64,000 bases of DNA, taken from assembly GCF_016026235.1 (NCBI RefSeq), contig NZ_CP065613.1. One strand, given 5' to 3'. This DNA comes from Escherichia coli. GTDB taxonomy: Bacteria > Pseudomonadota > Gammaproteobacteria > Enterobacterales > Enterobacteriaceae. Within the stretch, counting starts at the first letter, position 1, and each line of letters starts with the position of its first letter. The notes under the pieces were generated by a model. The model was not told the DNA's origin and made no database searches. It saw nothing but the letters and a program-made list of their open reading frames with translations. Positions 31,055 to 53,037 of the stretch are shown here, piece after piece. Both the position numbers and the translations under genes were made by a program.

Positions 31055-31174
31055 ATGTCTGGCAGTTCCCTACTCTCGCATGGGGAGACCCCACACTACC
31101 ATCGGCGCTACGGCGTTTCACTTCTGAGTTCGGCATGGGGTCAGGTGGGACCACCGCGCTACTGCCGCCAGACA
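31055..31174 (-). rRNA. rrfF: 5S rRNA, distal copy of rrnD
   Basis: Reverse complement matches the E. coli 5S sequence over 120 nt with a few substitutions. Confidence 0.93.
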
Positions 31175-31211
31175 AATTCTTTTCTAATCTGCCGAACTTT
31201 AACCTAAAAAG

Positions 31212-31287
31212 TGGTGCTGATACCCAGAGTCGAACTGGGGACCTCACCCTTACCAAGGGTGCGCTCTACCAACTGAGCCATATCAGC
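31212..31287 (-). tRNA. thrV: tRNA-Thr
   Basis: Reverse complement reads GCUGAUAUGGCUCAGUUGGUAGAGCGCACCCUUGGUAAGGGUGAGGUCCCCAGUUCGACUCUGGGUAUCAGCACCA. Confidence 0.93.
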
Positions 31288-31299
31288 ACGCTAAATTTG

Positions 31300-31419
31300 A
31301 TGCCTGGCAGTTCCCTACTCTCGCATGGGGAGACCCCACACTACCATCGGCGCTACGGCGTTTCACTTCTGAGTTCGGCATGGGGTCAGGTGGGACCACC
31401 GCGCTACGGCCGCCAGGCA
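31300..31419 (-). rRNA. rrfD: 5S rRNA, proximal copy of rrnD
   Basis: Reverse complement matches canonical E. coli 5S rRNA (UGCCUGGCGGCCGUAGCGCGG ... GCCAGGCAU). Confidence 0.95.
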
Positions 31420-31512
31420 AATTCTGTTTTATCAGACCGCTTCTGCGTTCTGATTTAATCTGTATCAGGCTGAAAATCTTCTCTCAATCCGCCAAAACAC
31501 CTTCGGCGTTGT

Positions 31513-34412
<2,900 letters not shown>

Positions 34413-34595
34413 TCACAACCCGAAGATGTTTCTTTCGATTCATCATCGTGTTGCGAAAATTTGAGAGACTCACGAACAACTTGCGTTGTTCAGTGTTTCA
34501 ATTTTCAGCTTGATCCAGATTTTTAAAGAGCAAAACTTCGCAGTGAACCTTTGCAGGTACACTCTGAAGTATTTTTTATTTAATCACTACAGAGA

Positions 34596-34671
34596 TGGTG
34601 GAGCTATGCGGGATCGAACCGCAGACCTCCTGCGTGCAAAGCAGGCGCTCTCCCAGCTGAGCTATAGCCCC
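34596..34671 (-). tRNA. alaU: tRNA-Ala (UGC) in the 16S-23S spacer
   Basis: Reverse complement reads GGGGCUAUAGCUCAGCUGGGAGAGCGCCUGCUUUGCACGCAGGAGGUCUGCGGUUCGAUCCCGCAUAGCUCCACCA. Confidence 0.95.
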
Positions 34672-34713
34672 ATAACATGTAGTTAAAACCTCTTCAAATT
34701 TGCCGTGCAAATT

Positions 34714-34790
<77 letters not shown>

Positions 34791-34858
34791 GTAGAGGTTT
34801 TACTGCTCATTTTCATCAGACAATCTGTGTGAGCACTGCAAAGTACGCTTCTTTAAGG

Positions 34859-36399
<1,541 letters not shown>

Positions 36400-39626: not shown

Positions 39627-40100
39627 TTAATGCAGCATACCTTCATTCACTTCAAAGAGTAATTCTTCCATTTGCTGGTACGCATTTTCGCAGCCCGGAA
39701 TATTGAACAACACCATCAGGATTACCCATTTCAGGTCTTCCAGGTCGAACTCTGCGGTATCCAGCGCGAGCACTCGCTCTATCACCATTTCACGGGTTTC
39801 AAGGTTAATCACCTGAATTTGCTCAAGGAAAAGCAGAAAACCACGACAGCTGGCATCCAGTCTTTCACACTCCTCAGGGGTATAAATACGCATGGAGAGT
39901 GGATCAGAGGCCAGTTGCATCGGTTCTGCCAGTCCTTCCTGATAATCCGCAAGCTTTTCCAGCCAAAGCAGGGCATTGTAGATATCTTCTCGATCAAATC
40001 CTGCGTCGGTAAGATCCTGTTCAAGTTTGTCTTGATCCACACGCAACTCAGCTTCTGTGTGAATATAGGTTTCAAACAAATACATTAGTACGTCGAACAT
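39627..40100 (-). CDS. smg: Smg protein
   Basis: 157 aa acidic protein [23 protein letters not shown]; conserved dprA-smg pair. Confidence 0.9.
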
Positions 40101-41196
40101 GGCATGCCCTCCTCAATCGGACATAGCCGCCGGGTACAGCTGCGATCCATCCTGCTAACTCCAGTTCGAGTAGTTGAGTAACTACCTCTGGCACAGGTTG
40201 GCCGGCACGTTCAGCGACGACGTCAACAGGTGTTACCTCATCTCCTACGTTAGCCAGGAGCTCAGGAAATGGCAATGCCACGTCTTGCTGATCTGGTGAA
40301 TAAAATGAATTTTCAGGGGCGTCTGGCAACCAGTGCAATCCAAATTGCAAGTTTTCCAGAATTTCTTCCGGTTCCGTCACAAGAATCGCACCTTGTTTTA
40401 TTAACCAGTGAGGCCCTTCGCTTCCCGGATTCCCTATTGGTCCTGGCAAGGCAAAAACTTCACGCCCCTGCTCAAGCGCACAACGTGCTGTCACCAACGA
40501 ACCACTGCGCAAAGCCGCTTCCACCACCAGTACACCTTTACTTAGACCACTGATAATGCGATTTCTTCGTGGGAAATTGTAAGCAAGGGGTGGAACATCG
40601 AGGGGAAATTCCGAGACAAGTGCCCCACCATGTTCAAGCAAACTGGTAGCCAGTCGGGCATGGCGGCGCGGATGAATGGTATTAAGTCCGTTCCCCAATA
40701 CAGCAATGCTGACGCCATTTACCTGTAAGGCCGCTTTATGCGCCACACCATCGATTCCACGCGCCAGTCCACTCGTAATTGTCACTCCACGCGTGGCCAG
40801 AGTTTCGCAAAATAATCGTCCCCATCGCTCGCCATACCATGAATGCGCCCGACTCCCCACTACGGCAAGCTGAAATGAATGCAGCGCGTGCAGTTCTCCT
40901 TCAACAAACAGTGCGCCGGGGTAATCTGTCGTCGCCAGAAGTTGAGGAGGATAAAATTCGCTGTCCGCAGGGATTAAATGATGGTTGGGTTGCTCCAACC
41001 AACAAAGTGAGCTTTCGATACTCTTTCGCGGAAATGAAAGAAAGCGTTGTGCCTGCCGCAATGTAAGCCCTGTTTGCTGCAATACAACCGCATCAATATG
41101 CGACTGTTTTGCCAGCCAGTGAGCTATACGGACCATATCATCGCCGTACAAGCTGCTGATGCTCATTAAACGCAGCCAAATATCTGTATCGACCAT
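40072..41196 (-). CDS. dprA: DNA-processing protein DprA (Smf)
   Basis: 374 aa; Rossmann-like DprA domain ([15 protein letters not shown]). Confidence 0.9.
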
Positions 41197-44153: not shown

Positions 44154-45530
44154 ATGAAAATTATCATTCTGGGTGCCGGCCAGGTTGGCGGCACACTGGC
44201 GGAAAACCTGGTTGGCGAGAACAACGATATCACTGTTGTCGATACCAACGGTGAGCGTCTGCGAACCTTGCAGGATAAATTTGACCTGCGAGTCGTGCAG
44301 GGGCATGGCTCTCATCCACGCGTATTGCGGGAGGCAGGTGCCGACGACGCCGATATGCTGGTTGCTGTAACCAGTTCAGATGAAACCAATATGGTTGCCT
44401 GCCAGGTAGCCTACTCACTTTTCAACACCCCTAATCGCATCGCTCGTATCCGCTCACCAGACTACGTACGCGATGCCGATAAGCTATTTCATTCAGATGC
44501 TGTACCGATTGATCATCTGATCGCACCAGAGCAGTTGGTTATCGATAATATTTACCGACTGATTGAGTATCCCGGCGCATTGCAGGTGGTGAACTTCGCT
44601 GAGGGTAAAGTCAGCCTCGCTGTGGTTAAAGCCTATTATGGCGGCCCGCTGATTGGTAATGCACTTTCGACCATGCGCGAACATATGCCACATATCGATA
44701 CTCGTGTGGCAGCAATTTTCCGCCACGATCGCCCCATTCGTCCGCAAGGTTCAACCATTGTTGAGGCTGGTGATGAAGTGTTCTTTATTGCCGCTTCACA
44801 GCATATCCGCGCGGTGATGAGTGAATTACAGCGACTGGAAAAACCGTATAAGCGGATCATGCTGGTTGGTGGCGGTAATATCGGTGCAGGGCTGGCGCGT
44901 CGTCTGGAAAAAGATTACAGCGTTAAACTCATCGAACGTAATCAGCAGCGCGCTGCCGAACTGGCGGAAAAGTTGCAGAATACGATCGTCTTTTTTGGTG
45001 ATGCGTCGGATCAAGAACTGCTGGCCGAAGAACATATCGATCAAGTTGATCTGTTTATTGCCGTCACCAACGATGACGAGGCCAATATCATGTCCGCCAT
45101 GCTTGCCAAACGTATGGGTGCGAAAAAGGTGATGGTATTGATCCAGCGTCGCGCTTATGTGGATCTGGTTCAGGGGAGCGTGATCGATATTGCGATTTCA
45201 CCACAACAAGCAACTATTTCTGCGTTGCTTAGCCATGTGCGAAAAGCAGATATTGTTGGTGTTTCCTCATTGCGCCGCGGCGTAGCAGAAGCTATTGAAG
45301 CCGTTGCTCACGGTGATGAAAGCACCTCACGCGTTGTCGGCAGAGTCATTGACGAAATCAAGCTACCGCCAGGAACGATTATTGGAGCGGTGGTACGTGG
45401 AAACGACGTGATGATTGCCAATGACAATCTGCGCATTGAGCAAGGCGATCACGTAATTATGTTCCTCACAGATAAAAAATTTATTACCGACGTCGAAAGA
45501 CTCTTCCAGCCAAGCCCTTTCTTCTTGTAA
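44154..45530 (+). CDS. trkA: Potassium uptake protein TrkA (tandem NAD-binding domains)
   Basis: 458 aa; [19 protein letters not shown] and a second Rossmann repeat [13 protein letters not shown]. Confidence 0.95.
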
Positions 45531-45562: not shown

Positions 45563-45866
45563 CCCTTTGATTATCAAGGATTAATTAAATTCATTCCTGG
45601 CAGGAAAATGGCTTAACATTTGTTAGACTTATGGTTGTCGGCTTCATAGGGAGAATAACATGAGCATTATTAAAGAATTTCGCGAATTTGCGATGCGCGG
45701 GAACGTGGTGGATTTGGCGGTGGGTGTCATTATCGGTGCGGCATTCGGGAAGATTGTATCTTCACTGGTTGCCGATATCATCATGCCACCTCTGGGCTTA
45801 TTAATTGGCGGGATCGACTTTAAACAGTTTGCTGTCACGCTACGCGATGCGCAGGGGGATATCCCC

Positions 45867-47149
45867 TGAGGGATCCCCAGAAAATTTAGTAAACCATTAT
45901 CATATTGGTATACCGTTGCTGTAGAACTTTCAGCCCTGCGTCAAGTGACAGTGTGTTTAGTATGAGTGGAGAATGTCGAATCACATTCTCCGCCAGTTTT
46001 AATAACGAGATGACTCGCCTGTGCTTCACTGTATTTGCCTGATATTTATGATGTATCCCTTTGTTTTCCAGGCTGAAACCGCTTAACCACATAATGATAC
46101 TGGCTAATGTTGCGATCAGACTCAATACCGTGACCCGCCCAGATGAATGACTGGCACCAAACCGTAGTCCAAATCCCCAGCGAGGATTTTTTTCATCCCT
46201 GAAATTTTGCTCAATTTGCATTCTACGGCTGTATAATTTCATTACCTGTTTTGGCGAGAACTCAGTACTGTTTGTGAAAATAAACCATGGTGATTTCCCG
46301 GCAGTACGAGCTTTAGCCGTCACCGATGGTCTGGTTGCTCTTTCCTTCGAGCGTTTAAATCTACGACCTTTAGGCTTACTTTTATAAAGATAAAAATGCC
46401 CTTCATGTTGTGCATTTTTATCTCGACCCAGCAGGCCTTCACCTAAATAAATTGCTGTCGTTGATGCTTTTGTGCCTGAGTCCGACACCTTTTCCCAGCC
46501 ATTACCAACATTGTAATAATGATTGCCCAGTACCCGGCAAATATAGGTCCAGCCACGGGAGCGGAGCTGTTGGAACCATCGCCCCTGAAAACCGGCATCT
46601 GTAATAACAATGACATCAGTCCCGGGGGAAAAGCACTCAGCAAGCGATTCCAGAAAACGCTCATGTACATCTGCATTCGCTGTCTGTGATGATGGAACGA
46701 CACAACTCATCAACGGTAAAGAACGCCCGTCACATGCCAGGCTTGCCCGCAAAAGCTGAAAACGAGAGGCATGATAAGCACTCCAGTCAATGAGTATCAC
46801 AACACGAGACATTCCCCGCGTAATCTTTTGGGTAATTCGCTGAAAAATGGTGGAAACCTCATTTTGCAAATGTCGATTCCCCAACAGTCGATCCACCCGC
46901 TTTATTTTGTTTTTAACTGATGCCGTACCGGTTAAATGACGCCCGATACTGGTAAGTGTGAGGGAAGCGCCATTTATTACAGCATTAGTTGCGTCAATCA
47001 GTGATTTTTGACGGTAAAGATGCAAAGGGGCCAGTATGTTGTTAAGGAAATTTTGGCATAATGAACGTGCAGGCATAGTGGTGATCTCCTTGAAATTGTT
47101 AGCACAATCAATTAGATCACATCTCACTATGCCTGTCTTGTTTTCTGGG
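45867..47149 (-). mobile_element. IS4-family (IS10-like) insertion sequence, about 1283 bp, with terminal inverted repeats and a 9-10 bp target-site duplication
   Basis: Left end CTGAGGGATCCCCAGAAAA versus reverse complement of right end CTGAGGAATCCCCAGAAAA (18/19 match); flanking direct repeat GGGATATCCC at 45857-45866 and 47150-47159; single transposase ORF inside. Confidence 0.88.
45886..47076 (-). CDS. IS4-family DDE transposase
   Basis: 396 aa from [10 protein letters not shown] with [25 protein letters not shown] and [15 protein letters not shown] (Y-2-R-3-E-6-K) motifs resembling the IS10 transposase but clearly diverged. Confidence 0.88.
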
Positions 47150-47370
47150 GATTCCTCAGGGGATATCCCTGCTGTTGTGATGCATTACGGTGTCTTCATT
47201 CAAAACGTCTTTGATTTTCTGATTGTGGCCTTTGCCATCTTTATGGCGATTAAGCTAATCAACAAACTGAATCGGAAAAAAGAAGAACCAGCAGCCGCAC
47301 CAGCACCAACTAAAGAAGAAGTATTACTGACAGAAATTCGTGATTTGCTGAAAGAGCAGAATAACCGCTC

Positions 47371-47589
47371 TTAACAAGCGCCTGAAAGCAGAAGACCAGT
47401 GGTAAAAAAGTGATTTACTTTCTTGCCACTGGCCTCCCAGTTCCCCCGATTGCCATGTTTTCCTTTTCGCATGTAACTACCTTTCCCTTTCTTATTTTTC
47501 TCTACGCGCTGTCGGAATAAGGGATCATGTAGTAATGCTTCTATCGCATTATCCTTTATCTGCCCTTTAGTATGCTGATATCGGCTCAT
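47371..47589 (-). CDS. arfA: Alternative ribosome-rescue factor A (YhdL)
   Basis: 72 aa [72 protein letters not shown]; 3' end overlaps the mscL stop. Confidence 0.92.
47384..47424 (-). promoter_or_regulatory. Stem-loop in the 3' part of the arfA ORF (candidate RNase III processing hairpin)
   Basis: Inverted repeat ccagtgg ... ccactgg flanking an A/T-rich loop inside the last ~15 codons; arfA mRNA is known to be processed to a non-stop transcript. Confidence 0.45.
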
Positions 47590-47644
47590 AAAAACTCCAG
47601 TTGGTTATTTAACGGCGCGAGTGTAATCCTGCCAGTGCAAAAAA

Positions 47645-48070
47645 TCAACAGCCACTCTTAACGCCACTCGCCCCTTGTTCAAGAGCTTCAAGAATCGAAC
47701 AATAAACACTGCTATGAGCAGTCCCACAACAGGCATCGTTAAGGCGTTGCAAGGAACGCTGCATACTCTGCAACTCGGCTATCCGTGCTTCGACTTCCTG
47801 CAATCTTTCCTGCACAATGCCTTTTGACTCCTGACAGGTATGGTGTTCAGGATCGATGCGGATCGACAGCAACTCGCGGATCGACTCCAGACTGAAACCT
47901 AGTTGTCTGGCATGGCGGATAAATTTCAATCGCTGGAGATCGCTTTCGGTATACAGGCGAAACCCACCTTCGGTACGCACTTCATGCTCCATCATCTGCT
48001 GCTTTTCGTAATAACGAATCGTGTCGGGTGTTACTTCCGCCATTTTTGCCAGCTCACCAATGCGATACAT
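47645..48070 (-). CDS. zntR: MerR-family Zn(II)-responsive regulator ZntR
   Basis: 141 aa from MYRIGELAKMAEVTPDTIRYYEKQQMM; C-terminal Cys/His metal site. Confidence 0.93.
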   Translation of the reverse strand: MYRIGELAKMAEVTPDTIRYYEKQQMMEHEVRTEGGFRLYTESDLQRLKFIRHARQLGFSLESIRELLSIRIDPEHHTCQESKGIVQERLQEVEARIAELQSMQRSLQRLNDACCGTAHSSVYCSILEALEQGASGVKSGC

Positions 48071-48080
48071 ACATACTCCA

Positions 48081-48449
48081 CTAGTTATCGTTGATTTTGT
48101 CCAACAACTTGTCAGCATAATCGCCGCGTAAAAAATCGGTACTCAATCCAGCTTGTCGCAGCTTCAATTCCAGTAATGACAATCGACGGCTAACCTCTTG
48201 ATATTGCGGATCATCGTGACGGATACCTTTGAGGATATCCAGAAGCTGAATTGCTTCCCTCCGTTGCTCAAGTTCTGGCGGTAAGCAACCGGCATTCTTC
48301 AACAAGCGATACCCCGCACGTAATTCCGGTGGCACGTGAGAATCATCATCCAGTATCAATGGTTCGCCGCTACCTGTCAGGTTATCAAACTCACCTTTCG
48401 CTTGCGCTTCTGCTATATGACGCTCTGCCCACTGGTCAAGTAACCACAT
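48081..48449 (-). CDS. yhdN: DUF1992-family protein YhdN
   Basis: 122 aa MWLLDQWAERHIAEAQAKGEFDNLTGSGEPL; conserved position between rplQ and zntR. Confidence 0.85.
   Translation of the reverse strand: MWLLDQWAERHIAEAQAKGEFDNLTGSGEPLILDDDSHVPPELRAGYRLLKNAGCLPPELEQRREAIQLLDILKGIRHDDPQYQEVSRRLSLLELKLRQAGLSTDFLRGDYADKLLDKINDN

Positions 48450-51054: not shown

Positions 51055-53037
<1,983 letters not shown>

Follow-up and report, generated by a model that had tools for sequence, protein, structure and literature searches.

The stem-loop in the 3' coding region of Escherichia coli K-12 arfA and its RNase III site were reportedly described in 2011 by Garza-Sanchez et al. and by Chadani et al., and in 2012 by Schaub et al. 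RNase III cleavage of the arfA message, the non-stop mRNA that results, and its control by tmRNA come from experiments on the K-12 sequence, as passages of PMC8012679 and PMC3989591 recount, and the mechanism is covered further in PMC10070815 and PMC3581467. In the portion of their paper that deals with the element, Morra et al. 2023 (PMC10070815) quote nt 146-206 from earlier work as the E. coli arfA regulatory stem-loop and describe two sRNAs, one covering nt 166-189 and the other running from nt 190 to the stop codon, as RNase III products from arfA. Sections of PMC8012679 and PMC6881298 give two routes to non-stop arfA mRNA, RNase III cleavage and premature transcription termination. A passage of one review sets the length of active truncated ArfA at 53-55 residues (PMC3989591), and full-length ArfA is described, in a passage of PMC8012679, as unstable owing to its hydrophobic tail. 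The Bacillus subtilis brfA system (Shimokawa-Chiba et al. 2019, PMC6881298) follows the same logic, in which an internal RNA structure in the ORF of a rescue factor leads to a non-stop mRNA and thereby to tmRNA control; however, the BrfA protein is unrelated to ArfA and its structure is a rho-independent terminator with a T-stretch, whereas the arfA hairpin lacks a U-tract and is an RNase III substrate.

Two further descriptions concern the neighborhood of arfA rather than the gene itself. The first is the pair formed by an arfA sRNA and the mscL 3' UTR (Morra et al. 2023, PMC10070815). The locus studied here has the same convergent geometry and retains both pairing segments in full (arfA nt 160-203 and mscL +13 to +56), but the target is broken: a 1294-bp insertion sequence separates the mscL promoter and the first 206 nt of the gene from its 3' fragment and UTR. 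The second is the trkA-zntR locus of Shigella flexneri, from which arfA has been lost in company with an insertion element and where ssrA is essential (Ramadoss et al. 2013, PMC3581467). An insertion element lies 3' of trkA in our locus as well; there, however, arfA is gone, whereas here only mscL is split.

Our locus lies in a 64,000-nucleotide stretch of E. coli DNA, which we refer to as the window. An ORF map combined with Pfam searches, which support each gene, gives the order trkA (44154-45530, plus strand), mscL (plus), arfA (47371-47589, minus), zntR (minus), yhdN (minus), rplQ, and rpoA. The trkA-mscL-arfA-zntR-yhdN synteny is kept, as annotated in the closest complete E. coli genomes, and the trkA-zntR layout is that given in PMC3581467. 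The arfA (yhdL) coding sequence at 47371..47589 on the minus strand comprises 72 codons and a TAA stop codon. Its original assignment to arfA is borne out by a match to PF03889 ArfA (E = 9e-26; 89.5 bits against a cut-off of 25.5) across residues 4-45, which constitute the functional domain, and by a protein sequence identical to K-12 WP_000092696.1. Alignment of the gene with its K-12 counterpart reveals three synonymous differences, all located 5' of the hairpin and upstream of nt 143. In the adjacent gene, the longest zntR ORF encodes 157 aa (47645-48118, minus strand) from an upstream ATG, compared with 141 aa (426 nt) in the RefSeq annotation; this discrepancy is a mechanical extension of the ORF and reflects no real difference.

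The original prediction pointed to an inverted repeat, ccagtgg…ccactgg, near the end of arfA. Both 7-mers are present, at 47396-47402 and 47426-47432, where they fall in arfA codons 63-65 and 53-55, respectively. A repeat search places them in the middle of a longer inverted repeat with 19-nt arms (47393-47411 and 47417-47435) and a 5-nt spacer, which in turn forms the core of a 26-bp stem-loop. Minus-strand RNA from 47371-47440, the interval proposed for structure prediction, folds as anticipated into a single dominant, stable hairpin whose 13-bp and 8-bp helices flank a 1x1 mismatch, with a 5-nt loop on the 8-bp helix. The significance of this fold is directly apparent from its minimum free energy of -30.3 kcal/mol, compared with a mean of -16.2 (sd 2.9) for 200 dinucleotide shuffles (z = -4.82), of which none is as stable. 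The interval contains the core hairpin but clips the outer 4 nt of the 5' arm of the full stem. In a 281-nt context, and equally on an isolated 61-nt segment, the stem extends to 26 pairs, arranged from the base as helices of 4, 14, and 8 bp that are separated by 1x1 mismatches and topped by the 5-nt loop. This full 3' coding stem-loop occupies 47384..47444 on the minus strand (arfA nt 146-206; -29.9 kcal/mol). It spans codons 49-69 of 72, so the description of the repeat as lying in the last ~15 codons was loose, and it lies downstream of the functional domain, given that the Pfam match ends at residue 45. The core hairpin, at 47390..47438 on the minus strand (arfA nt 152-200), holds both 7-mers and is found in the prediction for every orthologue as well as in the RNAalifold consensus. 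The apical loop, AAAUC, is at 47412..47416 on the same strand (arfA nt 174-178). When the whole 64 kb was scanned on both strands with a sliding 61-nt window, the hairpin ranked approximately 12th among non-overlapping loci by minimum free energy (background mean -12.9, sd 4.5). Searching the whole window against Rfam at the gathering threshold returned no family for the arfA hairpin, and relaxing the search to E <= 10 over 47100-47700 returned only spurious matches (MIR6024, 18.3 bits versus a gathering threshold of 72, and Plastid-psbA-2). This result means that no curated family covers the element and says nothing about its reality.

Direct comparison of the window with K-12 shows 100% nucleotide identity over a segment that starts at arfA nt 143, takes in the hairpin and the stop codon, and continues for another 31 nt. 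The K-12 stem-loop and ours share hairpin and 3' sequence, gene position, protein, and flanking genes. The element itself shows no difference; what distinguishes the two loci are the three upstream synonymous substitutions and the interruption of mscL by ISEc60. Given this identity and the coincidence of the predicted extent, nt 146-206, with the published extent, the known mechanism should apply here. The original prediction had likened the hairpin to the known RNase III/non-stop element, and base-for-base agreement with K-12 at the published coordinates supports this reading. We consider the element very probably to be the canonical 3'-coding regulatory stem-loop of arfA, unchanged from K-12 and working by the known mechanism; nothing in the sequence speaks against this reading. 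The finding therefore recovers an already known, textbook element in exactly the form that it has in K-12.

Mapping of the published RNase III products onto the identical sequence would put one cut in the 5' arm at 47424..47425 (minus strand, between arfA nt 165 and 166) and another in the 3' arm at 47400..47401 (minus strand, between nt 189 and 190). The two putative cuts are staggered by 2 nt in the predicted fold, in which nt 163 pairs with 189 and nt 164 with 188, as RNase III would give, and the first would leave an mRNA that ends after codon 55 and contains no stop codon. Cleavage, tmRNA tagging, and ArfA activity are expected in this strain from the literature on the identical sequence, and the following sequence of events can be proposed. 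The arfA gene would be transcribed from the minus strand and the stem-loop of nt 146-206 would form in the mRNA; RNase III would then cut both arms, after nt 165 and nt 189, or some transcripts would stop early at the hairpin. In either case the translatable arfA mRNA would lack a stop codon and end after approximately codon 55, and ribosomes would stall at its 3' end. As long as tmRNA-SmpB is available, nascent ArfA would be tagged for degradation and its level would remain low; if trans-translation is saturated or absent, a truncated and fully active ArfA of approximately 53-55 residues would be released, which would recruit RF2 and rescue stalled ribosomes. According to this scheme, the last 17 codons, together with the annotated stop codon, would serve as regulatory "packaging" rather than encode functional protein. 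The original claim that RNase III yields the non-stop mRNA agrees with the literature; as the only route it does not hold, since premature termination has also been reported. The Rfam scan found no match to tmRNA (ssrA) within the window.

We compared the best 80 arfA loci from a single scan of species-representative genomes, all of which belong to Enterobacteriaceae. In each of these 80 loci the strongest hairpin of the 3' region is at the same position, its core corresponding to nt 152-200, with free energies from -23 to -44 kcal/mol. A gapless alignment of 73 columns has canonical pairs in 91.7% of the pair cells, a share that falls to 43-64% (maximum 63.7%) if partners are displaced by 1-3 columns; no shuffle of the 80-locus alignment reaches the observed covariation score, and RNAalifold predicts a consensus structure of 20 pairs. 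True covariation is limited: 28 sequences have U-A in place of C-G at one pair, and many pairs are G-C in some sequences and G-U in others. We attribute this limitation to a nearly invariant stem, in which 11 of the 26 pairs never vary, and conservation of sequence (through antisense pairing or protein recognition) and conservation of structure cannot be fully separated.

Conservation at the nucleotide level is observed directly in the codons themselves. At the third codon position, the functional core (codons 2-47) has an entropy of 1.19 bits and the stem arms (codons 51-55 and 63-67) one of 0.16 bits, and amino-acid entropy climbs to 2.5 bits in codons 68-71, with residues after codon 67 essentially unconstrained. 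This combination of frozen synonymous sites and free amino acids supports the conclusion that the 3' third of the arfA ORF is conserved as nucleic acid, not as protein. Among the best 80 loci the end of the ORF ranges from codon 68 to codon 93, while the hairpin never moves; the annotated arfA stop codon is evidently free to drift. These comparative numbers, with synonymous sites frozen in the stem arms and a stop codon that wanders between codons 68 and 93, illustrate a known principle and are no discovery: the 3' third of the ORF is shaped in evolution as RNA and not as protein. One member of the set of loci, NZ_CACSJJ010000125.1, is a 383-bp sequence labelled Arthrobacter sp. 18067 that carries an enterobacterial arfA/mscL junction with the hairpin (87% aa identity to E. 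coli ArfA) and is probably contamination of the Arthrobacter assembly. Of 5426 complete E. coli genomes, 5421 carry the 61-nt hairpin, and in 2581 of these its sequence is identical to that of the window. Three non-identical hairpins were inspected, drawn from the 2840 genomes below 99% identity, and these have C rather than T at nt 195, which converts a G.U pair into G-C. The remaining 5 of the 5426 genomes give no match to the arfA hairpin or to the mscL-arfA segment, and these strains might depend on tmRNA in the manner of S. flexneri.

The near invariance of the stem invites an alternative explanation, namely that the high conservation derives mainly from a cis-antisense role in which the arfA sRNA freed by RNase III (nt 160-203) base-pairs with the mscL 3' UTR and destabilizes mscL mRNA, a function layered on autoregulation. 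This role is an experimental claim of Morra et al. 2023 (PMC10070815). It is in keeping with stem arms that are near-invariant instead of freely covarying, which fits a constraint beyond pairing, and with the tail-to-tail arrangement of mscL and arfA in 80 of 80 loci. However, most arfA genes reportedly bear a 3' hairpin (Schaub et al. 2012). Other lineages include arfA genes that are not beside mscL, in a "distal" cluster, and the reported effects on mscL are approximately 2-fold (PMC10070815). In the window, ISEc60 splits mscL, so that no MscL can be made and the MscL output of the antisense circuit is abolished whatever the pairing does; the target is without functional consequence, and retention of the hairpin here is uninformative about this role. 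We regard an antisense role as the main source of the conservation as possible but less likely than autoregulation by the canonical hairpin. As an extra layer in strains with an intact mscL, antisense regulation is plausible, and this function may add to the constraint on primary sequence.

The geometry of the junction bears on a related claim. On the plus strand the mscL TAA occupies 47372-47374, and the arfA TAA is read from the strand complementary to 47371-47373. As originally proposed, the stop codons overlap, through the palindrome TTAA, and the coding sequences share 4 nt (47371-47374). The hairpin was further said to be encoded within the mscL 3' fragment, but those 4 nt are all the coding sequence that is shared: the hairpin begins approximately 9-10 nt past the mscL stop codon, spans 10-70 nt beyond it, and sits in the mscL 3' UTR. 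The relatives contradict the proposal that this overlap puts a constraint on how both genes evolve. In the best 80 loci the coding sequences overlap by 0 nt (36 species), 4 nt (19 species), 6, 26-27, 33, 47-48, or 65 nt. An overlap that ranges from 0 to 65 nt is labile and not a meaningful constraint, and the hairpin is the object that is conserved.

Its position in the mscL 3' UTR raises another alternative: the stem-loop might be mainly a terminator or 3'-end structure that ends arfA transcripts early and forms the 3' end of mscL mRNA, and would so act bidirectionally between convergent genes, with RNase III secondary. In all 80 loci, no more than 16 nt (range 0-16) separate the mscL stop codon from the foot of the stem. 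The mscL 3' UTR is reported as +1 to +64/+70 (PMC10070815), and +64 corresponds to window position 47438, where the core stem has its outer boundary. A fold is likewise predicted for the plus strand (47371-47450, -22.4 kcal/mol, z = -3.9). The same paper reports that the mscL 3' UTR itself folds, but also that RNase III cleaves the arfA and mscL hairpins in vitro (PMC10070815), which argues against a terminator as the main function. The hairpin is followed by no U-tract on either strand, since the 10 nt past the stem contain 3 T in the arfA sense and 2 T in the mscL sense, and a terminator scan calls it on neither strand. Moreover, a role in termination of mscL is moot in this strain since mscL is already inactivated. 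A canonical intrinsic terminator is thus not supported by the sequence features examined, while the literature would still allow some termination, and we consider it unlikely that termination is the main function of the stem-loop. Separately, a 5-bp stem over the TTAA overlap (47366-47380, minus strand) was flagged as terminator-like; in context it is not significant (z = -1.8, with 9 of 200 shuffles as stable).

Because the opposite strand also folds, the choice of strand deserves comment. The 61-nt hairpin has a free energy of -29.9 kcal/mol in the arfA sense and -21.5 kcal/mol on the opposite strand, and the arfA-sense strand is the more stable in 55 of 81 sequences; the asymmetry between strands that G.U pairs introduce is clear in the window and weak across species. 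Taken with the opposite-strand fold, this means that assignment of the element to the arfA strand rests mainly on the literature.

The disruption of mscL, which the original prediction recognized, is due to ISEc60, an IS10-like member of the IS4 family that occupies 45866..47159 on the minus strand (1294 bp) and splits the gene after nt 206. A blastn comparison with K-12 mscL aligns nt 1-206 at 45660-45865 and nt 196-411 at 47159-47374, and the two pieces cover positions 1-60 and 65-123 of the Pfam MscL profile. Accordingly, we delimit a 5' fragment at 45660..45865 (plus strand, mscL nt 1-206) and a 3' fragment at 47160..47374 (plus strand, nt 197-411, including the TAA), which the closest genome's annotation gives as a partial mscL. 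The element is bounded by terminal inverted repeats, CTGAGG(G/A)ATCCCCAGAAAA, that match at 18 of 19 positions, and by a 10-bp target duplication, GGGATATCCC, at 45856-45865 and 47160-47169. Its transposase CDS (45886-47076, minus strand; DDE_Tnp_1, 73.9 bits) is annotated in RefSeq as ISEc60 family and is co-directional with arfA. The exact insertion, with both junctions, is present in 2 of 5426 complete E. coli genomes, FDAARGOS_943 (99.9% identity) and 2023CK-01509 (99.0%). ISEc60 leaves arfA, its upstream region, and the hairpin untouched: 225 nt separate its nearer end from the base of the stem (47159 versus 47384), and this end is 212 nt past the arfA stop codon. Given that the target duplication is intact and that the mscL fragments still encode the K-12 protein, the insertion appears recent; that the hairpin is retained is then no surprise and does not testify to selection since ISEc60 inserted. 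The insertion in mscL is the only strain-specific feature of the locus.

ISEc60 might be imagined to have rewired the locus. Transcripts of arfA that escape the hairpin would read through the antisense of the mscL fragment into the insertion sequence; the hairpin would serve as an insulator, through which transposase expression could become coupled to RNase III activity or to translation stress; the arfA sRNA would lack a functional mscL target; and the locus could be an intermediate toward the IS-mediated loss of arfA seen in S. flexneri. We offer this scenario as a conjecture that is very unlikely to be correct. A promoter scan of 46900-47800 found no sigma-70-like sites and so gives no sequence support for an outward promoter in the insertion sequence, although the same scan also missed arfA's own promoter and is therefore uninformative.

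That the stem-loop is a chance inverted repeat or a functionless, REP-like generic element has a negligible probability, since the existence of long hairpins elsewhere in the window is all that favors it, whereas no shuffle in 200 is as stable (z = -4.82), the element occurs once, within a coding sequence, and keeps the same codon position across 80 species, and its synonymous sites are frozen; the conservation data exclude it.

For annotation, the relevance of the canonical arfA stem-loop in this strain is that the gene and its autoregulatory hairpin are intact where the adjoining mscL is inactivated by an insertion sequence. With both intact, the strain should keep ArfA as a backup for trans-translation and should be able to do without ssrA, which S. 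flexneri cannot. Elsewhere in the window, a complete rrn operon occupies 31057-36399 on the minus strand and comprises 16S, tRNA-Ile, tRNA-Ala, 23S, 5S, tRNA-Thr, and a second 5S; an Rfam match to StyR-44 (34420-34528) lies in the spacer beside the 23S gene, and an Alpha_RBS leader is at 51379-51490. The dprA and smg genes abut in the window (39627-41196) as in K-12, whereas FDAARGOS_943, the closest RefSeq genome, has a frameshifted IS5-family transposase gene between them.
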